From contig CAZJKG010000001.1 of the NCBI GenBank assembly GCA_964546795.1, positions 61,690 through 125,689 of the forward strand: a stretch of DNA of 64,000 nt, read 5' to 3'. Both the position numbers and the translations under genes were made by a program. This document shows, piece by piece, positions 6,387 to 52,940 of this stretch; the first letter of the stretch is position 1; each line of letters starts with the position of its first letter. Origin of the DNA: an uncultured Candidatus Saccharibacteria bacterium. Its GTDB lineage: Bacteria > Patescibacteriota > Minisyncoccia > Phycocordibacterales > Phycocordibacteraceae. The notes beneath the pieces were generated by a model. That model was not told where the DNA came from and made no database searches. It saw only the letters and a list, made by a program, of their open reading frames with translations.

Positions 6387-7856
6387 ATGAAGTGGCTCAC
6401 CCGCATATTCAGGAAACGAAAGGATGCCGCCGCGCAGGACCGGCCTGCGCAAATATTCCTCACCAATACGCTCTCGGGCGCGAAAGAACTCTTCATATCG
6501 CAGAGACCGAGGATCGCATCGATGTATACGTGCGGGCCAACGGTCTACAGTCAGCAGCATATCGGCAATCTGCGGCCCGGAGTTTTCTCGGATACGCTCG
6601 CGCGAGCGCTCGCACATGCCGGCTATCGCGTGCGACGCGTCATCAACATCACGGACGTCGGCCATCTGGTCGGCGATGGGGACCTTGGCGAGGACAAGAT
6701 AGAGATGGGAGCAAAGCGCGAGGGCCTCTCCGCCTCCGCCATTGCCGAGCGATACACGACATTATTCCTTACCGACCTTGCGGAGCTCAATATTGATACA
6801 AAAGACATCTTCTTTCCCAAGGCAAGCGACTATATTAAAGAACAAATTTCGCTCGCGCGCACGCTTGAAGAAAAAGGGTTCGCCTATCGTATTGACGACG
6901 GTCTTTATTTCGACACAAGCCGTTTCCACGGCTACGGCAAGTTGGGCGGGCTCTCCGGTGCACAACTCAAAGCCGGAGCGCGCATTGAAACGAATCCCCA
7001 GAAACGCCATCAGGCCGACTTCGCACTGTGGAAAAAAACACCTCCTGATGTGAGTCGAATGCAGGAATGGGATTCGCCGTGGGGGCCCGGATTTCCCGGC
7101 TGGAATTTGGAGTGTTCTGCGATGGCGCGCGCATTGCTCGGCATTGAGATAGACATTCATACCGGAGGCGAGGATCTCGCGCAGATACACCATAACAACG
7201 AGATCGCTCAGTCGGAAGCTGCATCGGGTCGGCCGTTTTCCCGCTACTGGATGCACAATGCATTTCTTACTATGGAGGGTGAAAAAATATCGAAATCGAT
7301 AGGCAATGTCGTCTACCTCTCCACTATCATTGAGAAGGGATTCCATCCTCTTTCGCTCCGCTATTTTTTTCTCCAAGCGCACTATCGCACTCCCCTCTCC
7401 TTCTCGTGGAACGCCATTGCGGGCGCCGCAAGCGCGCTTGAACGGCTCTGGAAGCTCTCGCGCGAACTCGCGGAGGAATCCAAGCGAATGGAAGAATCTT
7501 CTGAAGCGCGCAGTCGCTTCCTTGCAGCGATGCGCGACGACCTCGCAACTCCGCAAGCACTCGGCATCCTCTGGGACTCCTTGAAGAGCGAGGATTACAC
7601 TCCCGAAGAAAAATGGTGTCTTCTTGAAGATGCTGAAGCGCATTTCGGTCTGTCGCTCCTGCATCCGCCCGCCGCAGGCGCCCTGGCAACATCGGACATT
7701 CCGGAAAAGATCCGCGAAATGCTTGCGCGGCGGGAAGCAGCGCGCGCGGCACTGGATTTTAAGGAGGCGGACCGCATCCGAACCGATATTGAGAACAGTG
7801 GATATCATGTGGATGACGGACCGGAAGGGCCGGTGTTGATTCGGACGACTCTTTGA
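6387..7856 (+). CDS. cysS: cysteinyl-tRNA synthetase
   Basis: MYTCGPTVYSQQHIGNLR (HIGH-like), KISKS (KMSKS), zinc-binding Cys, and a C-terminal anticodon-binding domain. The first ~25 aa are uncertain. Confidence 0.85.
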   Translation: MKWLTRIFRKRKDAAAQDRPAQIFLTNTLSGAKELFISQRPRIASMYTCGPTVYSQQHIGNLRPGVFSDTLARALAHAGYRVRRVINITDVGHLVGDGDLGEDKIEMGAKREGLSASAIAERYTTLFLTDLAELNIDTKDIFFPKASDYIKEQISLARTLEEKGFAYRIDDGLYFDTSRFHGYGKLGGLSGAQLKAGARIETNPQKRHQADFALWKKTPPDVSRMQEWDSPWGPGFPGWNLECSAMARALLGIEIDIHTGGEDLAQIHHNNEIAQSEAASGRPFSRYWMHNAFLTMEGEKISKSIGNVVYLSTIIEKGFHPLSLRYFFLQAHYRTPLSFSWNAIAGAASALERLWKLSRELAEESKRMEESSEARSRFLAAMRDDLATPQALGILWDSLKSEDYTPEEKWCLLEDAEAHFGLSLLHPPAAGALATSDIPEKIREMLARREAARAALDFKEADRIRTDIENSGYHVDDGPEGPVLIRTTL

Positions 7857-38171: not shown

Positions 38172-39578
38172 ATGAAAGAAATCGTGCAAGATGGCACGCC
38201 AGTGTTGCGCGATATCGCATTGCCCGTGCCCGAGGATCTCTTCGGCACCCCGGAGCTCGTGCATCTCATCAAGGACATGGAGGAGGCGCTCGACAAAGAG
38301 ACCGAGGGCGTCGCACTCGCCGCGCCGCAAATAGGAGTGTCGTACCGCGTCTTCATCGTAAGGAAAGACAGAACCCGTCCTTCGCCAAAGGCTACGGAGG
38401 GCACAGCACTTCCCCTACACGCGCCGCGAAGCGGCGCGTCGGGCAAACTTTTAGCGGAGTCGGAAGTTTTAGCCCCCGAAATAGAGGTCTTTATCAATCC
38501 CGAGATTGTAAAGACCTCCCGCAAGCGAGCAAAGACAGACGAAGGATGTCTCTCGGTTCGCGGCGTGTACGGCACGACCAACCGGCACGAACGCGTTACC
38601 ATCCGCGCCCGTCGTCCTGACGGCTCTAAACTAACGCGCGGCGCCGGCGGACTCTTGGCGCAAATATTCGAACATGAAATAGACCATTTGAACGGCATCC
38701 TCTTTATTGACCATGCCGAACATCTCATTCACATAAAGCGTCAATTGGAGCATCGCTTCGCCTATTTCGGTACGCCCCATGTCGCGAGCGATACGCTTGC
38801 CATTCTCATCGAACGCGGGTTTGTACCTTCCGTCGTTGTAACTTCTCCGGACGCGCCGAAAGGTCGGGGTCTTGCTCTTGCACCGTCCGAAACGAAAAAG
38901 CTCGCGCTTGTACACGGTATCCCCGTCATGACTCCGGAAAAATTAGACGCAAATGCAATCGCTGAGATAAATACATTCGCATGCGACTATGCCGTCGTCG
39001 TCGCCTACGGCAAGATATTTCCCGAAGAGCTTATAACCGCATTCCCCCGAGGCGTGGTAAATGTCCATTATTCACTTCTGCCGAAATATCGCGGAGCGAC
39101 ACCGCTTGAGACGGCTCTCCTTTCGGGCGACACGGAGACCGGCGTGACTATACAAGAAATGGTGCGTGAACTTGATGCGGGCGACATCATTGCGCAGAAG
39201 ACCACCGAAATTGCGCTGTTTGAGACCGCGCGCGAGCTGCGAGCGCGACTCATCGATATGGGAGCTTCCCTGCTTGCCGACACTCTCCCCGAATACGCAG
39301 CGGGGCGCATTGAGCCAGTTCCGCAAGACGCCTCCCGCGTCACGCGCACGAGGAAACTCAAAAAAGAAGACGGGCTTCTCTCACTTGATGCTCCTGCCGA
39401 AGTGAACTGGAACAAATACCGCGCATATGCCGACACTATCGGCACCTATTTCTTTGATCCGCCAATCGGCGGAGGTAAGCGAATTAAAATAACGGCGGCC
39501 TCATTTAAAAACGGGGTATTTGTCATCGAGCGCGTCATTCCCGAAGGTAAACGCGAGATGAACTACTCCGCGCGGTAA
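38172..39578 (+). CDS. bifunctional peptide deformylase / methionyl-tRNA formyltransferase fusion (Def-Fmt)
   Basis: The N-terminal half carries PDF motifs G.A.PQIG, EGCLSVRG and HEIDHLNG. The C-terminal half carries Fmt motifs (FGTP, HYSLLPKYRGATP, a C-terminal domain). It is a single uninterrupted 468-codon frame. Confidence 0.8.
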   Translation: MKEIVQDGTPVLRDIALPVPEDLFGTPELVHLIKDMEEALDKETEGVALAAPQIGVSYRVFIVRKDRTRPSPKATEGTALPLHAPRSGASGKLLAESEVLAPEIEVFINPEIVKTSRKRAKTDEGCLSVRGVYGTTNRHERVTIRARRPDGSKLTRGAGGLLAQIFEHEIDHLNGILFIDHAEHLIHIKRQLEHRFAYFGTPHVASDTLAILIERGFVPSVVVTSPDAPKGRGLALAPSETKKLALVHGIPVMTPEKLDANAIAEINTFACDYAVVVAYGKIFPEELITAFPRGVVNVHYSLLPKYRGATPLETALLSGDTETGVTIQEMVRELDAGDIIAQKTTEIALFETARELRARLIDMGASLLADTLPEYAAGRIEPVPQDASRVTRTRKLKKEDGLLSLDAPAEVNWNKYRAYADTIGTYFFDPPIGGGKRIKITAASFKNGVFVIERVIPEGKREMNYSAR

Positions 39579-40442: not shown

Positions 40443-40735
40443 TCCGGGATAGCTCAATGGTAGAGCAGCGCCCTGTGGCTTACGCAGCTTTTCAGAGGAA
40501 TCTGGATCGAATAACGAGGTGAATTGCTGGAAACCCTTCGTGGGCAATCAGCAGCCAAGTCCCGCCGTCGGCTGGAAAGGTTCAGAGACTATCCCGAAAG
40601 GGAGTACTGTCCCGATGTAAAGTCGGAATGGGAAGCGCCTCGCACCGAGAAACGGTGATGATATAGTCCATCCCTTTTGGAAACTTAAGGAGCGATGTAA
40701 GGCGTTGGTTGCAGGTTCGAGTCCTGCTCCCGGAG
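40443..40735 (+). tRNA. tRNA (anticodon read as GTT, Asn) interrupted by a ~221-nt group I intron in the anticodon loop
   Basis: Exon 1 (40443-40476) and exon 2 (40698-40735) form a clean cloverleaf: acceptor TCCGGGA/TCCCGGA, D arm GCTC-AATGGTA-GAGC, anticodon stem GCGCC/GGCGT, loop CTGT^TAA, T arm GCAGG-TTCGAGT-CCTGC. Confidence 0.7.
40477..40697 (+). ncRNA. group I self-splicing intron
   Basis: 5' exon ends in U and the intron ends in G. Internal CAGCAGCCAAGTCC, GGTTCAGAGACTA and ATGTAAAGTCGGAATGGG resemble conserved P4/P7 core segments of Tetrahymena/cyanobacterial tRNA group I introns. Too short to encode a homing endonuclease. Confidence 0.65.
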
Positions 40736-40969
40736 CTAGAAAAAGTTAGGCCCTGATGCGGACAGCATTGGGGTCTTACTTTTTCTCTCCGCGGACAGGA
40801 CTCGAAAGCGAGCGCGGGTACCAGTCGAGCACGACTGGTCGCGCGAGGCGGCTCGCGAAATACTGGAGCGACGGCGACAGTATTTTGTGAGAGAGATGCG
40901 TACTCGCGATCCTGCTCCCGGAGCAAAATAACCGTAGGTCGGTTCAAGATGGCACTTTAGGGTGCTATT

Positions 40970-47494: not shown

Positions 47495-48116
47495 ATCATC
47501 GGTACTTTGGGTATCTGTTTGGATTGTGTTGTTTCTATGTCTTACTTTCCTCACGATAGAGGTGGTGATATCTCAGAGTTTTATAGTTGCTGCTGATGTG
47601 TGGTTTGAAAATGTGCTGCTTAGCGTTCGTACCCCCTTTCTTATACATGTCTTTGCTTGGATAACTCTTTTGGGGAATGCTTTTGTCGCCATGGGAATAG
47701 CGGGGATTGCTCTGATATTTTTATTGTGGAAGCGCTACAAAGCATACGCAGTAGGACTTGCTATCACACTTATCGGCGCTGCTGCCACAGATTATGTGAT
47801 GAAAGCCATCATAGAACGCGCACGACCGGATGGTCTCATTCCCTCCATGGTTGAAACCTCATTTTCCTTTCCAAGCGGACATGCTACCGCCGCAATGGCT
47901 CTCTATGGTTTTATGGCGTACGTCCTTTGCAATCTTTTCCCTGAGAAAAAAACAGTCCTAGTGACCGCGGCTGTGCTCATCATAGGGAGCATCGGCTTCA
48001 GCAGATTGTATTTGGGTCTGCACTTCCCTAGCGACGTGCTCGCCGGCTACATTCTTGGGGGTCTTTGGCTCCTCATAGGAATCGCAGCGGCAAAAAGAGT
48101 TTCCGACTATCAATAG
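47478..48116 (+). CDS. PAP2 family phosphatase (undecaprenyl-diphosphatase-like)
   Basis: KAIIERARP, PSGH and SRLYLGLHFPSDV motifs, with 5-6 TM helices. Confidence 0.7.
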   Translation: MDEENKSSVLWVSVWIVLFLCLTFLTIEVVISQSFIVAADVWFENVLLSVRTPFLIHVFAWITLLGNAFVAMGIAGIALIFLLWKRYKAYAVGLAITLIGAAATDYVMKAIIERARPDGLIPSMVETSFSFPSGHATAAMALYGFMAYVLCNLFPEKKTVLVTAAVLIIGSIGFSRLYLGLHFPSDVLAGYILGGLWLLIGIAAAKRVSDYQ

Positions 48117-49471
48117 CGATAACCGACCTCCCCATGGACGGCGAGATCGAGCCCTTGTTCTTCTTCGTCCGAACTCACTCGTAGCGGAGATTTGAGCGAA
48201 ACGAGTTTCAGGATGATCCACGTTGCCGCAAAGGAATAGATGCCAACCGCAACCACTGCCACTATCTGCACGAGGAGTTGCTCGGGATTGCCGAACAGAA
48301 GACCGTTGTTACCCGCCGCATTTATCGCTTTCTCCGCAAAGAAACCGGTGAGTATGGCGCCAGTGAGACCTCCGACACCGTGACCCGCCCACACGTCAAG
48401 CGTATCGTCTATGCTGATACGCCGATTTCGTATATGGACAGCCAAGTAGGTGATGGCTCCCCCGAGAATACCGATAGCGATAGCGGCTACTGGCCCAACA
48501 TATCCTGAGGCCGGCGTGATAGCGACAAGGCCGCACACTGCGCCAATAGCAGCGGCCATGGCGGATGGCTTTTTATTTTCGGCCCATGAGAGCGCCACCC
48601 ACGTGAGCGCCGAGGCGGCGGCAGCGGTATTCGTGACCACGAACGCGCTCGCCGCAAGAGCACCCGCGGCAAGCGCGGAGCCGGCATTGAAGCCGAACCA
48701 TCCGAACCACAAGAGCGCCGCGCCCAAAATAACAAAGGGAACATTGTTGGCATTGTTCATGGGGTTCTTCATCTGGAGACGTTTGCCCACGACGAGCGCC
48801 GCCGCAAGTGCCGAAAATCCCGCGGTCATATGCACGACCGTTCCTCCCGCGAAATCCAGCGCACCGAGCGCATGAAGCCATCCGTTTGGAGACCATACCC
48901 AGTGAGCGACCGGGTCATATACAAAAGTCGCCCAGAGCAGAGTAAATATGACGAGTGCTTTAAATTTAATACGCCCGACAAAAGCGCCGATGATGAGTGC
49001 AGGTGTAATTATCGCAAACATCCCCTGGAATATCATGAACACCAATGCAGGAATAGTCGCCGCATAATTTGGATCGGGCGCAAACCCAACCCCCCGTAAT
49101 CCAAAGAGCGAAAGGTCTCCCACGACCCCGCGCACATCCGGACCAAAGGCCATGCTGTAGCCGATGACCACCCACTGCACGGAAATAAGCGCGAGAATTA
49201 TCATTGACTGCTTTATGACGGACACCACGTTCTTAGACGAAACCATGCCGCCGTAGAAGAAACCGACCGCCGGCGTCATGAGCATGACAAGAGCTGTGGA
49301 CGCAAGCATCCACGCAGTATCGCCACTGCTTATGGCGCTTGAAGAAGCGTCTCCCGCCGAGGCACCCGCAAAAAAGGTCGCAAGGTATCCCACACCGCAC
49401 CCGAGTGCTATCCAGAGGGCGGAATGCCAGATGAATTTCTTCCCTTCCTGCGATCTTAGAAATTGTTCCAT
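48110..49471 (-). CDS. amt: ammonium transporter
   Basis: Amt/MEP signature DFAGGTVVHMTAGFSALAAALVVGKR, 11 TM helices. Confidence 0.85.
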   Translation of the reverse strand: MEQFLRSQEGKKFIWHSALWIALGCGVGYLATFFAGASAGDASSSAISSGDTAWMLASTALVMLMTPAVGFFYGGMVSSKNVVSVIKQSMIILALISVQWVVIGYSMAFGPDVRGVVGDLSLFGLRGVGFAPDPNYAATIPALVFMIFQGMFAIITPALIIGAFVGRIKFKALVIFTLLWATFVYDPVAHWVWSPNGWLHALGALDFAGGTVVHMTAGFSALAAALVVGKRLQMKNPMNNANNVPFVILGAALLWFGWFGFNAGSALAAGALAASAFVVTNTAAAASALTWVALSWAENKKPSAMAAAIGAVCGLVAITPASGYVGPVAAIAIGILGGAITYLAVHIRNRRISIDDTLDVWAGHGVGGLTGAILTGFFAEKAINAAGNNGLLFGNPEQLLVQIVAVVAVGIYSFAATWIILKLVSLKSPLRVSSDEEEQGLDLAVHGEVGYRY

Positions 49472-50901
49472 AGGAGTTGATTGGTTACTTCATGATGGTA
49501 AATAATCTCGGAGCCCTTGATGGCCGTCCCGAGGGCCTTGGGCGAACGGTCCGCCGCGGCCTGCTTGTAATGAATGAACTTTTCTTTATTGTCCTCACCC
49601 AGAATCTCGGTCATGAACTTACTGCTTCTACAGAGCGCGATGGCATCGTTAATATTGTCCGGAAGGAAGCGCAGGCGATCTCGTTTATTCCTGTCTTTCT
49701 GTAATTTCTCTCCCTCCAGACCCACGCGCACGATGGTGTAGAGCGCGAGATAGGGATTGGCGTCAGGAGCAACGGAGCGCACTTCAATGCGTGCGGTTTT
49801 CTCATTCCCCACTGGAATCCGTATCATCGAGCCGCGATCTATAGGCGAGACCTTTATCTGATTCGGCGCCTCAAAATGAGGATCAAGCCGCCGGTAGCTG
49901 TTAACCGAAGAATTAATGATGAGACAGAGCTCCGGCGCATGGTTGAGGAGTTTCAGTATGAAGTCCCACGCCAGCTTCGAAAGCCCGTCCTGACCTTTCG
50001 GATCATGGAATATGTTCTTTCCGTTCTTGCCGAGCGAGAAATTAGTATGCATGCCAGAGCCATTGATGCCCATGAATGGCTTCGGTAAGAATGTTGCCGT
50101 CATGCCGAGATTCCGCGCGACCTGGCGGCATATCAGTTTATACAGCTGCACATTGTCGGCCGCCCTCACCACGTCCGAGTAAGAGAAATTCATTTCGAAC
50201 TGCGAAGGAGCGACCTCCGGATGATCTTTTTCATTTTTGAATCCCATGGCGCGCTGCGCTTCCGCTGCGCGATCTATGAAGATGCGCAACTTGTCCATGG
50301 GAAGTGAGTGGAAGTAGCCGCCCGACGATATGAGTTTGAATCCTTCCCCACTGCGATAATTCTGCTCGCTCTGTATGCCGTCCACCAAAAAACCTTCTAT
50401 TTCTGCGGCAGAATAGGCCTCAATGCCTTGCTTTTTCTTCAGGGCCGCCACATACGATTTCAACTGGCCGCGGAAATCAGAATGATAGGGTGTGCGATCC
50501 CTATTAAGCACCGATGCAAAGAAAATCACCTTGCCGGCGCCGAACACGTCAGCCGGAAAATAACGGATGCTTCCCCAGTCAATCTCGAGTCGCAGGTCCG
50601 ACTCGTGCTGGGGCGTGAAGCCGCGAATGGATGAACCGTCGAAGGTGAGATTGGAAAGAGAATTAAGCAAAAATTTCTTGTCATAATCGAGCATGTGAAG
50701 GCGTCCTTCAATATCCGTAAAGCAAAGCGTGACCGCTTTTATCCTTTTTTCTTTTTTCAAATACGCCGTGTATTCTTTCTCGAGCGCCGCCGGCGATACG
50801 GTTTCCGCCCTCTCCTTCGCCTTTACGTTCAGCTCTTCCAGGCGGTCATAGGGGATCTGAAGGAAATTCTTTAAACCATCCATATCTATATCTTTTTCCA
50901 T
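49456..50901 (-). CDS. glnA: glutamine synthetase (type I-like, with N-terminal extension)
   Basis: Beta-grasp plus catalytic domain and the NGSGMHTNFSL motif. Adjacent to amt. Confidence 0.8.
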   Translation of the reverse strand: MEKDIDMDGLKNFLQIPYDRLEELNVKAKERAETVSPAALEKEYTAYLKKEKRIKAVTLCFTDIEGRLHMLDYDKKFLLNSLSNLTFDGSSIRGFTPQHESDLRLEIDWGSIRYFPADVFGAGKVIFFASVLNRDRTPYHSDFRGQLKSYVAALKKKQGIEAYSAAEIEGFLVDGIQSEQNYRSGEGFKLISSGGYFHSLPMDKLRIFIDRAAEAQRAMGFKNEKDHPEVAPSQFEMNFSYSDVVRAADNVQLYKLICRQVARNLGMTATFLPKPFMGINGSGMHTNFSLGKNGKNIFHDPKGQDGLSKLAWDFILKLLNHAPELCLIINSSVNSYRRLDPHFEAPNQIKVSPIDRGSMIRIPVGNEKTARIEVRSVAPDANPYLALYTIVRVGLEGEKLQKDRNKRDRLRFLPDNINDAIALCRSSKFMTEILGEDNKEKFIHYKQAAADRSPKALGTAIKGSEIIYHHEVTNQLLWNNF

Positions 50902-50974
50902 ATTAAATATAATTATTAATTGAATTATATTAAAAGTATATATACTTAGTATAAATATTGTCTATATAATACTT

Positions 50975-51721
50975 GTGGATAACCGTCTTTTAGATATGGT
51001 AAGCTACGGTCATTACATGGATAAAGAAGAGTTGAGAGAACACGAAGCGCTTGCCCGCACGTTGAACGATCCTGCGTTGCGCGCCGCCTATGCCAAACCA
51101 TTTGATGAATATAAAGCGGGATATATCGCCCGCGTGCTCGGAGGTTTCTTGATACGCTCCGGAGGTCTCATATACGGCAGACAACCTTCCTATGCGAAAT
51201 TTAAAGCCATAGAGGTGATAGCGCGCATACCGTATCAGTCCTGGGAAATGGCGGTGTACACGCTCTTGACCGCCTTTTATACCGATGAACAGAAAGCAAT
51301 CGGTCTTGCGAAAACGAGTACTTTCAGCCGCATGGCCCAGGATAACGAGACGATGCATGTGGTCGTCTTGTCCCAGATAGTGTGCCGTCTCAACTGCGAG
51401 GATGTCCTGCGGCACACACTCATTCCCTTCTTCTTTTCCTTCCTGTATTTCTGGACGGTATACGTCCTCTACCTATTCTCGCGACGAGCGGCGTTTGAGC
51501 TCAATTATCTCTTTGAGGCGCATGCGTACGCGCAGTACAGCGAATTTCTGGAGCGCGAGGGCGAGCATCTGAAACAACGTCCCGTTACATCGGATTTCCT
51601 TGCATTCTATGGCCGAGACGTGCGCAGTGAATACGAGCTCTTTGAACTTATCCGTAATGACGAACTCATCCATCGCAACCGTTCCATACGCGAGCTTCAA
51701 GCCAACGCTCTCGTGATATAA
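50975..51721 (+). CDS. alternative oxidase (AOX/PTOX family di-iron carboxylate quinol oxidase)
   Basis: All four iron-ligand helices are present: IEVIARIP (LET.A..P), QDNETMHVVVL (NERMHL), LFEAHAYAQYSEFLE (LEEEA.HSYTEFL) and IRNDELIHRNRS (RADEA.HRDVNH). Hydrophobic membrane-docking helices lie between them. Confidence 0.7.
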   Translation: MDNRLLDMVSYGHYMDKEELREHEALARTLNDPALRAAYAKPFDEYKAGYIARVLGGFLIRSGGLIYGRQPSYAKFKAIEVIARIPYQSWEMAVYTLLTAFYTDEQKAIGLAKTSTFSRMAQDNETMHVVVLSQIVCRLNCEDVLRHTLIPFFFSFLYFWTVYVLYLFSRRAAFELNYLFEAHAYAQYSEFLEREGEHLKQRPVTSDFLAFYGRDVRSEYELFELIRNDELIHRNRSIRELQANALVI

Positions 51722-51728
51722 ATACCGC

Positions 51729-51971
51729 ATGAGCATCATTGTGTATACAAAAACAGGATGTCCTTGGGCCACTGAGGTCATGGCGTATTTGAAATCTCGC
51801 AACATCCCTTTTGAGGAACGCGATATCATCAAAAATCAAGGGTACCGAACAGAAGTTGAAGAAAAGAGCGGGCAAAGCAAAAGCCCTACGCTTGATATTG
51901 ATGGAGTCATCGTGCCAGATGCCGGCGTGGAGGAAGTGGCTGCAGCTCTGGCAAAGTTGCATTTGACATAA
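51729..51971 (+). CDS. glutaredoxin-like thioredoxin-fold protein (single-Cys CPWA site)
   Basis: IIVYTKTGCPWATEVMAYLKSRNIPFEERDI ... PTLDIDGVIV matches the Grx fold. Confidence 0.55.
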   Translation: MSIIVYTKTGCPWATEVMAYLKSRNIPFEERDIIKNQGYRTEVEEKSGQSKSPTLDIDGVIVPDAGVEEVAAALAKLHLT

Positions 51972-52040
51972 ATCCATAAGTAAAGTACCGTTCCAGGAGA
52001 GGTATCGCGGCTTCTGCGACACTCAAGAAAGGAGTGTGCC

Positions 52041-52217
52041 ATGCTTTGGAAGTACTGTGAATGCGGAAAAAAGATATTATTCTTCCGATCCTTTCGGCCT
52101 GGTAAAGGCAGAATGATTTTTTCTAAAAAGAACGGTCATACTCTTTGCGCTCGGTGCTTGAGATCTGAAAACGACTCTATACGAGCGCATGAAATGCAAA
52201 TGATAGATGGACTATAA
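52041..52217 (+). CDS. hypothetical zinc-ribbon peptide (58 aa)
   Basis: AAAGGAG RBS 7 nt upstream. C.C ... C..C arrangement. A strong terminator follows. Confidence 0.3.
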   Translation: MLWKYCECGKKILFFRSFRPGKGRMIFSKKNGHTLCARCLRSENDSIRAHEMQMIDGL

Positions 52218-52252
52218 GCTCACTCCCTCTACGGGAGTGAGCTTAAACTTTT
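52217..52252 (+). terminator. rho-independent terminator
   Basis: AGCTCACTCCC-TCTAC-GGGAGTGAGCT followed by TAAACTTTT. Confidence 0.7.
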
Positions 52253-52271: not shown

Positions 52272-52940
52272 TCAACGAGATGTAATGAGTTCGTAATCGT
52301 GCGGGAAGAAATATTGGACGATTTTAAATATGCCGTAGGCCATAAAAGGTGCCGCGAATACGTCAATGGAATAGTGAATATGGGCCAACAGCACGGCAAC
52401 GGCAAAGACGAGCGCCATCAATAAGAACACAGCGCGAAGAAATGGCGTCTCCCAGAAAATAAGGGCCATGAGAAACGGTATGCCAGTATGTCCTGAAAAG
52501 AAGAAGCCGGTTTGGAAATTGTAATATAAATAAATAGCGTCAAGAAATCCAGCACCCGGATCTATCTGGCCCGGATAAATACCTATATGAGTGAGGGAGA
52601 TGGATAAGGCCCGAATCGTTATAAAAATTGCCAAGGCCTTGAGGGTAAAGACAAGATATCGCGGCTTTAAAAATACAACGAATATTGTACCGAAGACGAT
52701 ACTCAACAGCGCACCTTCAATGATAATGAAATTCAGGTCGATGATGGGAAGATTGTCCAAAAGAAGGTCTCCGACATGTCTGGTCGTGGGGCTCGTCAGA
52801 AAGGTGAATGCGTAGACGATAGCGAAGTGGTCAAAGATGAAGGAGACGCAAAGCATGAGAAGTGCGCTCACAAGTGAGTGCAATCTCCCGTGCTCGAACA
52901 AATCCATGAATTTGAACGTATCCTCTTGGTGCGTCTCCAT
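52272..52940 (-). CDS. PAP2-superfamily integral membrane protein (sphingomyelin-synthase/AUR1-like C-terminal motifs)
   Basis: FFSGHTG and HYSIDV motifs, 6 TM helices. Confidence 0.5.
   Translation of the reverse strand: METHQEDTFKFMDLFEHGRLHSLVSALLMLCVSFIFDHFAIVYAFTFLTSPTTRHVGDLLLDNLPIIDLNFIIIEGALLSIVFGTIFVVFLKPRYLVFTLKALAIFITIRALSISLTHIGIYPGQIDPGAGFLDAIYLYYNFQTGFFFSGHTGIPFLMALIFWETPFLRAVFLLMALVFAVAVLLAHIHYSIDVFAAPFMAYGIFKIVQYFFPHDYELITSR

Follow-up and report, generated by a model that had tools for sequence, protein, structure and literature searches.

The window analysed here, a 64,000-nucleotide (nt) stretch of contig CAZJKG010000001.1 (assembly GCA_964546795.1, positions 61,690 to 125,689 of the forward strand), harbours at its positions 50,975 to 52,252 a short run of three genes. 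The first encodes an oxidase of the family that comprises the alternative oxidase (AOX) and the plastid terminal oxidase (PTOX), followed by genes for a glutaredoxin-like (Grx) protein and a small zinc-ribbon-like (Zn-ribbon) protein (Table 1). As described in the initial annotation, the oxidase gene runs divergently from glnA, with Pfam matches confirming a glnA-amt pair on the minus strand. Three plus-strand open reading frames (ORFs) make up the region, the first of which could begin at 50975 or at 51017. The GTG at 50975 had been taken as the oxidase start; however, the homologues are 229-234 amino acids (aa) long and their first residue is the methionine equivalent to the ATG at 51017, while in one relative (locus L111) an upstream GTG lies 40 nt before the ATG and is therefore out of frame. 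The real start is thus the ATG at 51017. Minus-strand ORFs at 50990-51415, 51473-51832 and 51666-52022 each overlap a conserved plus-strand gene and were taken as spurious.

Table 1. Features of the oxidase locus and its flanks (window coordinates).
Feature	Position	Strand	Basis
glnA (49456-50901) and amt (48110-49471), divergent; context only, outside the oxidase unit	48110..50901	-	Pfam Gln-synt_C, Gln-synt_N, Ammonium_transp
AT-rich divergent intergenic region, glnA (-) / oxidase (+), with promoter-like sites and 5' leader	50902..51016	.	
PTOX/AOX-family di-iron carboxylate oxidase, 234 aa	51017..51721	+	PF01786 match, aligned ligands
Oxidase ligand codons E66; E111; H114; E167; E216; H219	51212..51214; 51347..51349; 51356..51358; 51515..51517; 51662..51664; 51671..51673		
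Oxidase tyrosine codon Y174	51536..51538		
Monothiol glutaredoxin-like protein, 80 aa, active site C11-P-W-A	51729..51971	+	Starts 7 nt past oxidase stop
Small basic Cys4 (CxC...CxxC) zinc-ribbon-like protein, 58 aa, accessory	52041..52217	+	AAGGAG Shine-Dalgarno
Intrinsic-terminator-like hairpin between convergent Zn-ribbon gene (+) and PAP2_C gene (-)	52215..52245	+	
PAP2_C-family membrane protein, convergent; downstream bound of unit, context only	52272..52940	-	PF14360 27.7 bits

The assignment of the first gene to the AOX family, proposed on inspection of the letters alone, was borne out by the Pfam AOX model PF01786, whose gathering cutoff of 22.7 the ORF clears with 32.3 bits at an E of 1e-7, over positions 53-210 of the 216 in the profile; a precomputed match to the same family exists for most of its homologues, while NCBIfam models gave no match to the ORF. 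Two ExxH motifs and an E(x)6Y motif constitute the signature common to AOX and PTOX (PMC6896000). The corresponding segments of the window oxidase (234-aa numbering) read AIE66VIARIPY, QDNE111TMH114, LFE167AHAYAQY174 and RNDE216LIH219, and E66, E111, H114, E167, Y174, E216 and H219 are invariant in an alignment of 25 family members. When remote bacterial and eukaryote-type (PTOX-like) homologues were added to the family, the resulting alignment of 38 sequences retained merely 10 invariant columns, among them all six ligands and the tyrosine, with the E167-(x)6-Y174 spacing unchanged in 38 of 38. A profile built from this alignment matched the trypanosome alternative oxidase (TAO, 3vv9) in the PDB at an E of 1.1e-9, and the E, ExxH, E(x)6Y and ExxH columns line up with TAO E123, E162/H165, E213/Y220 and E266/H269; following the published TAO structures, we take these residues to be the iron ligands and Y220 to be the catalytic tyrosine. 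All four di-iron ligand motifs claimed at the outset are thus recognisable and fall on the catalytic positions of a solved enzyme. Judged from these alignments, the window gene is genuinely related to AOX and PTOX, though divergent from both, and its di-iron ligands are intact.

The predicted structure is in agreement with this assignment. An AlphaFold2 model of the oxidase (pLDDT 83, pTM 0.84) was compared with the PDB by Foldseek, and the 14 best matches were all TAO entries (probability 1.0, TM 0.57), so the model places an AOX-type helical-bundle fold in the protein. Its most hydrophobic stretch, at approximately residues 133-156 (mean Kyte-Doolittle value 1.8), aligns with TAO residues 181-202, presumably the membrane-binding helix as in the published TAO structures. 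Furthermore, residues aligned to the TAO pocket (L/I65, A170 and the E(x)6Y motif) are kept. Apart from these positions, Cys127 (codon 51395-51397), which sits in the loop joining the second ligand helix to the hydrophobic helix, shows a conservation of at least 90% across family members and does not align with the regulatory cysteine of plant AOX; it might represent a redox-regulatory site.

Searching 1.84 billion representatives exhaustively with phmmer yielded a tight family of 11 representatives at E <= 1e-30, followed by a tail of proteins of 230-375 aa at 1e-20 to 1e-6. The longer tail proteins carry N-terminal extensions along with the PTOX-type motifs LETIARVPYF, NExHHLLIME, ExHAxxxY and RDDExEH, and include a protein of Cyanophora paradoxa and a marine-eukaryote (algal) transcript of the MMETSP set; such algal-type proteins were reached at approximately 1e-10 with 25-37% identity. 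The cluster names of intermediate homologues are mostly uninformative, and the eukaryote-type sequences are presumed here to be PTOX from their motifs and from what is known of IMMUTANS, not from annotation. Since these same PTOX-type proteins barely match TAO (E only ~0.1), the window oxidase lies far closer to PTOX than to the AOX of mitochondria, and PTOX is likewise the nearer when compared with proteobacterial AOX. In a rough neighbour-joining tree rooted on TAO and drawn without support values, the window clade together with other short bacterial proteins forms the sister of the eukaryote-type PTOX group.

PTOX/IMMUTANS of algae, plants and cyanobacteria is accordingly the closest characterised sequence type, sharing with the window oxidase the motifs (L/I)E(T/V)IAR(V/I)PY, NExxH, ExHAxxxY and RxDExxH as well as membership of PF01786. 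Nevertheless, the window protein is shorter (~230 aa versus 330-375 aa), lacks the N-terminal transit/extension region and the insertion before the last ExxH that occurs only in eukaryote-type sequences, and belongs to a non-photosynthetic Patescibacterium; in view of the missing insertion and the host it is termed PTOX-like, not PTOX. From AOX proper (TAO, mitochondrial and proteobacterial enzymes) it differs far more, with 14-17% identity and no long N-terminal arm.

A word-indexed search returned 1058 oxidase homologues at E <= 1e-3, the best 120 of which are 64-94% identical to the window protein, with the named ones assigned to Patescibacteria, Parcubacteria or Paceibacterota. The window protein itself had no exact entry among public assemblies. 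When one genome was scanned for each GTDB species, the gene was located in 155 genomes, from which 80 species-level loci, all of them in metagenome-assembled genomes (MAGs), were kept for locus-level counts. These loci are labelled as Patescibacteria, Parcubacteria, Paceibacterota, Kaiser-, Nomura-, Morani- or Wolfebacteria, Minisyncoccia, or with generic bulk-submission labels; nearly all of the labels are of Patescibacteria type, and the oxidases share 56-94% identity. The window DnaB is 89-93% identical to proteins from Kaiserbacteria, Paceibacterota and Patescibacteria MAGs, which places the window on the chromosome of a Patescibacterium (Paceibacteria, Kaiserbacteria-like). The oxidases form a compact, PTOX-like clade of ~230-aa proteins specific to Patescibacteria (class Paceibacteria), for which the gene is lineage-typical; some members are already labelled 'alternative oxidase' or 'ubiquinol oxidase' in databases. 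The suggestion that AOX is rare in bacteria and possibly acquired horizontally here was not supported: the clade has more than 1000 members, its presence in 155 species genomes argues against a one-off import, the local GC content at the oxidase is ordinary (~0.50), and the flanking gene order YceG - PAP2 - oxidase - Grx - PAP2_C is common to the window and its relatives. Recent horizontal transfer into this genome was rejected on these grounds of composition, synteny and phylum-wide distribution.

The taxonomic labels of some contigs deserve a separate mention. Contigs named 'uncultured Bdellovibrionales' and many named 'uncultured Candidatus Saccharibacteria' (L074, L079, L080, L085 and L086) share the oxidase and a histidine phosphatase - oxidase synteny with Moraniibacteriota MAGs (L072, L073 and L078), and such bulk-submission labels look unreliable.

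Patescibacteria (the candidate phyla radiation, CPR) are generally portrayed as fermenters that lack electron-transport chains, and accounts of their oxygen use have focused on the cytochrome bo3 and bd oxidases of a few lineages. Literature searches for AOX, PTOX or ubiquinol oxidase in CPR, Patescibacteria or Parcubacteria turned up no work on the present clade. One AOX phylogeny contains a single CPR hit in passing, which is presumed to have been transferred from Proteobacteria (PMC9540462), and a 2025 study of CPR adaptation to oxic conditions gives other O2-using enzymes and not this oxidase (PMC12577380). According to Nelson and Stegen (2015), O2-using genes occur in only three of eight C7867 Parcubacteria genomes (-001, -007 and -008); for Parcubacteria with cytochrome bo3 or bd quinol oxidases and no quinone-synthesis genes, a host-derived quinone was proposed (PMC4508563). 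More generally, the Parcubacteria genomes covered by the literature are reported to lack a respiratory chain as well as quinone synthesis. Parcubacteria bacterium C7867-004, apparently (by its name) from the same genome set, carries the present oxidase (LFCN01000006.1, 8001-8678; locus L038), with a gene for an FAD-linked dehydrogenase upstream. The PTOX-like clade has thus been overlooked in the searchable CPR literature and constitutes a candidate third route to O2 reduction in CPR, present in at least 155 species-level genomes. As the family itself is already known, the interest lies in the host biology, and the gene is a clear, testable lead on oxygen handling in Patescibacteria, not something categorically new.

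In our judgement, the oxidase probably functions as a monotopic, non-pumping di-iron quinol:O2 oxidoreductase, with which a fermentative symbiont would scavenge O2 and vent excess reductant (a redox valve). The di-iron centre would be held by E66, E111/H114, E167 and E216/H219, with Y174 as the catalytic tyrosine; a quinol would dock beside this centre and O2 would be reduced to water without proton pumping, so that the enzyme would remove O2 while giving reducing equivalents a way out. The host membrane is the probable source of the quinone. Here the logic proposed for bo3 and bd quinol oxidases of quinone-less Parcubacteria is applied to a di-iron oxidase. Membership of the family, the intact catalytic residues, the fold, the distribution and the neighbourhood counts are established here, whereas the quinol substrate, the quinone source and the physiological role are inferred. 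The analogy is functional, namely a quinol oxidase in genomes without quinone synthesis, as in some Saccharibacteria and Parcubacteria, where bo3 and bd enzymes have been read as serving O2 scavenging or limited respiration with a quinone that is perhaps host-derived (PMC4508563, PMC9530719). The two types differ in that bo3 and bd are unrelated haem proteins which conserve energy, whereas the di-iron oxidase would be non-pumping. If active, the window enzyme offers a small, easily expressed test case for oxygen handling and use as well as for the borrowing of host quinone in Patescibacteria.

A candidate electron donor emerged from the neighbourhoods of the oxidase in other genomes. Neighbouring genes, three on either flank of the oxidase, were clustered at 69 loci; the largest cluster was a 552-aa FAD_binding_4 + FAD-oxidase_C protein encoded upstream on the same strand. 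By tblastn, 37 of the 80 loci have it upstream; in 21 of these the distance is no more than 400 nt, typically 20-66 nt. Its best family matches, far below the cutoffs, are the D-2-hydroxyglutarate dehydrogenase YdiJ (261 bits) and the glycolate oxidase GlcD, and its best PDB matches are the lactate dehydrogenase LctD, glycolate oxidase and D-lactate dehydrogenase. The YdiJ model is covered only in its N-terminal half (profile positions 19-540 of 1018); the unmatched C-terminal half is, as we understand the published work, presumably the Fe-S module that couples YdiJ to quinone. By analogy, a pairing of this FAD-linked D-2-hydroxyacid dehydrogenase with the oxidase is suggestive of a dehydrogenase-oxidase pair, the dehydrogenase being the possible donor where it is encoded next door. 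A comparable pairing is that of glycerol-3-phosphate dehydrogenase with TAO in bloodstream trypanosomes. At loci where other genes stand between the two, a third component was considered and rejected, as these genes are unrelated and on the opposite strand. Extending this reading, the two proteins might constitute a minimal O2-reducing chain in the ultra-small Paceibacteria, which seem devoid of both quinone synthesis and a respiratory chain, connected via pirated host quinone or by direct protein-to-protein transfer, with thiol control through Grx and Cys127 as an additional possibility in the window's lineage. This extension is tentative and on the whole unlikely; if true, O2 would be a routine electron sink in a group long held to be strict fermenters.

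Several observations weigh against the quinol oxidase reading and its proposed donor. The relationship to AOX is distant: querying the PDB by sequence with the window oxidase alone returned no solved AOX and nothing relevant, a search with the tight 25-sequence family profile matched neither TAO nor any other AOX, and only the broader profile including PTOX-like sequences reached TAO. In addition, the TAO positions T219 and R118 are occupied by Gln and Lys, respectively, in the Patescibacteria clade. No quinone-synthesis gene, no quinone-reducing dehydrogenase and no homologue of the FAD dehydrogenase was found in the 64-kb window, and in the other genomes the neighbourhoods were read over 8 kb on either side of each oxidase gene. 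The FAD-oxidase adjacency is itself part of a longer conserved block (TerC ... FAD - oxidase - RRM - DUF1360 - MTS), and at approximately 10 loci unrelated opposite-strand genes lie between dehydrogenase and oxidase; the adjacency may therefore reflect shared ancestry instead of functional coupling. Other subclades carry different upstream genes, namely a cupin overlapping the oxidase by 4 nt (8 loci), a histidine phosphatase (7 loci) or a divergent NTP-transferase (16 loci).

The absence of quinone synthesis from published Parcubacteria genomes (PMC4508563) would also suit an oxidase that dispenses with quinone and receives electrons directly from a protein partner, be it the FAD-dependent 2-hydroxyacid dehydrogenase or, in the window's lineage, a thiol protein. 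The dehydrogenase lacks the C-terminal half of YdiJ and lies 20-66 nt upstream of the oxidase in about 20 loci, both of which fit such direct transfer. Nevertheless, the partners are not conserved across the clade, and the hydrophobic, putative membrane helix is retained together with the residues aligned to the TAO pocket. Moreover, to our knowledge no member of PF01786 uses anything other than quinols, and quinone-independent transfer is clearly unlikely.

In the initial annotation, the three adjoining genes were suggested to form a dedicated oxidative-stress or O2-scavenging module, possibly acquired horizontally as a unit. Their shared orientation, gaps of 7 nt (oxidase-Grx) and 69 nt (Grx-Zn-ribbon) and single strong terminator are in favour of this, and the three genes probably form one transcript. 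The second gene product is indeed Grx-like, with a score of 54.4 bits against PF00462 and a lone cysteine within CPWA; since the resolving cysteine is replaced, only monothiol chemistry is possible. It shares the thioredoxin-fold Grx domain PF00462 with YruB/NrdH-like proteins, yet differs from them in its CPWA (not CPWC) motif and in falling below every NCBIfam cutoff, that of mycoredoxin included (YruB, its best match, 48.8 versus 88.55; Grx3 30.7 versus 90; NrdH 19.5 versus 85.75). The oxidase-Grx pair with CPWA recurs in four close relatives, and the nearly invariant Cys127 of the oxidase could be addressed by a thiol protein.

The distribution of the Grx gene stands against such a module. 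By tblastn, it occurs near the oxidase only in the closest relatives, and a hidden Markov model (HMM) built from 22 Grx homologues placed it beside the oxidase at one of the 80 species loci (L007, a 94%-identical relative) and a further copy in L082 at a distance of 6.4 kb. Scanning metagenomes with Grx added three close relatives, in the orders oxidase - Grx - PAP2_C (L087), amt - glnA - oxidase - Grx (L111) and Grx - Zn-ribbon - PAP2_C (L089); L089 and L111 both originate from Hainich H51. The pairing is thus confined to L001/L007, L087 and L111, all with CPWA, while the L089 contig begins past the motif. Grx homologues of 60% identity or less mostly carry CPWC (TGCPWC), a few carry CPWA, CPWG or CPWR, and none of them adjoins an oxidase.

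The Zn-ribbon gene is even more restricted. As initially described, it encodes a 58-aa Cys4 peptide (CxC...CxxC) in the same orientation, with its own Shine-Dalgarno sequence; it matched no Pfam family and had no homologue among 5.8 billion proteins. An HMM search over all fetched loci recovered a sole homologue, in L089 (68% identity; CxC...CxxH), where a Shine-Dalgarno sequence precedes the gene and a terminator hairpin follows it. When both genes are compared, 18 codons are identical, 23 differ only synonymously and 18 non-synonymously, which indicates purifying selection and hence a real gene. In L087, however, the end of the PAP2_C gene lies within 12 nt of the Grx stop and the Zn-ribbon gene is absent; it is therefore dispensable. 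Together with the ordinary GC content, the phylum-wide oxidase and the flanking synteny common to relatives, these patterns leave the module with a low probability, and the Grx and Zn-ribbon genes are better regarded as recent lineage-specific additions, apparently unneeded for oxidase function.

Two further features of these accessory genes were observed. In the CPWC Grx-like family, the second active-site cysteine has been replaced repeatedly (CPWA, CPWG and CPWR in L088, L091, L098, L112 and L114; window 51759-51770), and several of these variants carry a cysteine near the downstream (S/K)xPT loop, which the window Grx does not. Furthermore, in L001 (~7030-7094), a different CxxC knuckle (KCPECDS...) follows Grx in place of the window Zn-ribbon; the contig stops there and the gene is unreadable.

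The oxidase might also perform a different di-iron chemistry on a scavenged membrane lipid or prenyl compound, acting as a COQ7-like hydroxylase or desaturase or as an aldehyde-deformylating oxygenase. Such a role, which is nevertheless improbable, would be in keeping with the PAP2 lipid phosphatases on its flanks. That the gene is a decaying or non-functional remnant, as its low Pfam score and non-respiratory context could imply, is extremely improbable and, from the conservation pattern, appears effectively refuted: the sequences are 56-94% identical across 80 loci, the catalytic residues are invariant and the frames are intact.

With respect to local transcription, the extreme AT-richness noted upstream of the oxidase was confirmed by measurement, with GC of 9.6% over 50902-50974 and 21% over 50902-51016, compared with 51% for the whole window. 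This intergenic region contains two minus-strand promoter-like sites for glnA; a TATAAT at 50965-50970 and the block TGTCTAT(A/G)TAATACTTGTGGATAAC are kept in L111, and these elements are putative promoter sites. The strong terminator reported at the end of the unit likewise stands: the hairpin has a 13-bp stem with 7 GC pairs, a tail of AACTTTTGAT and a fold energy of -23.6 kcal/mol, and an analogous hairpin (-18.6 kcal/mol) follows the Zn-ribbon homologue in L089. The PAP2_C gene beyond it occupies the same position in L087 and L089. The adjoining genes are non-respiratory, consistent with the earlier remark that the context gives no respiratory chain. The ten largest ORFs of the window encode housekeeping proteins, including penicillin-binding proteins (PBPs), class I LysRS, CysRS, DnaB, MurA and a Def-Fmt fusion, none of them respiratory. 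The fusion is a single ORF of 468 aa (38172-39578, plus strand) that joins a peptide deformylase (PF01327) to a methionyl-tRNA formyltransferase-type domain (PF00551).

The amt-glnA pair (48110-50901, minus strand) between PAP2 and the oxidase is absent from the closest relative, L001/L007 (L001 5319-6001), and present in L111 (2-2391). Between L111 and the window, glnA is 95% and amt 93% identical, yet the adjoining oxidase and Grx are 81% and 77% identical, respectively; GC is 0.62 in amt versus 0.46-0.50 in the flanks. The pair looks like a recently exchanged cassette with a presence/absence polymorphism.

Among the distant bacterial PTOX-like homologues, P0158 (294 aa; L119 3949-4833) is flanked on one side by a divergent Fur-family regulator, three rubrerythrins and a rubredoxin, with a fused MsrB-MsrA directly downstream; these surroundings constitute an oxidative-stress gene cluster. 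Elsewhere in the window, the anticodon loop of a tRNA-Asn(GTT) (40443-40736, plus strand) is split by a 221-nt group I intron, which matches Rfam RF00028 with 81.6 bits at 40480-40690; the intron option of ARAGORN finds this tRNA, whereas default tRNA scans miss it.

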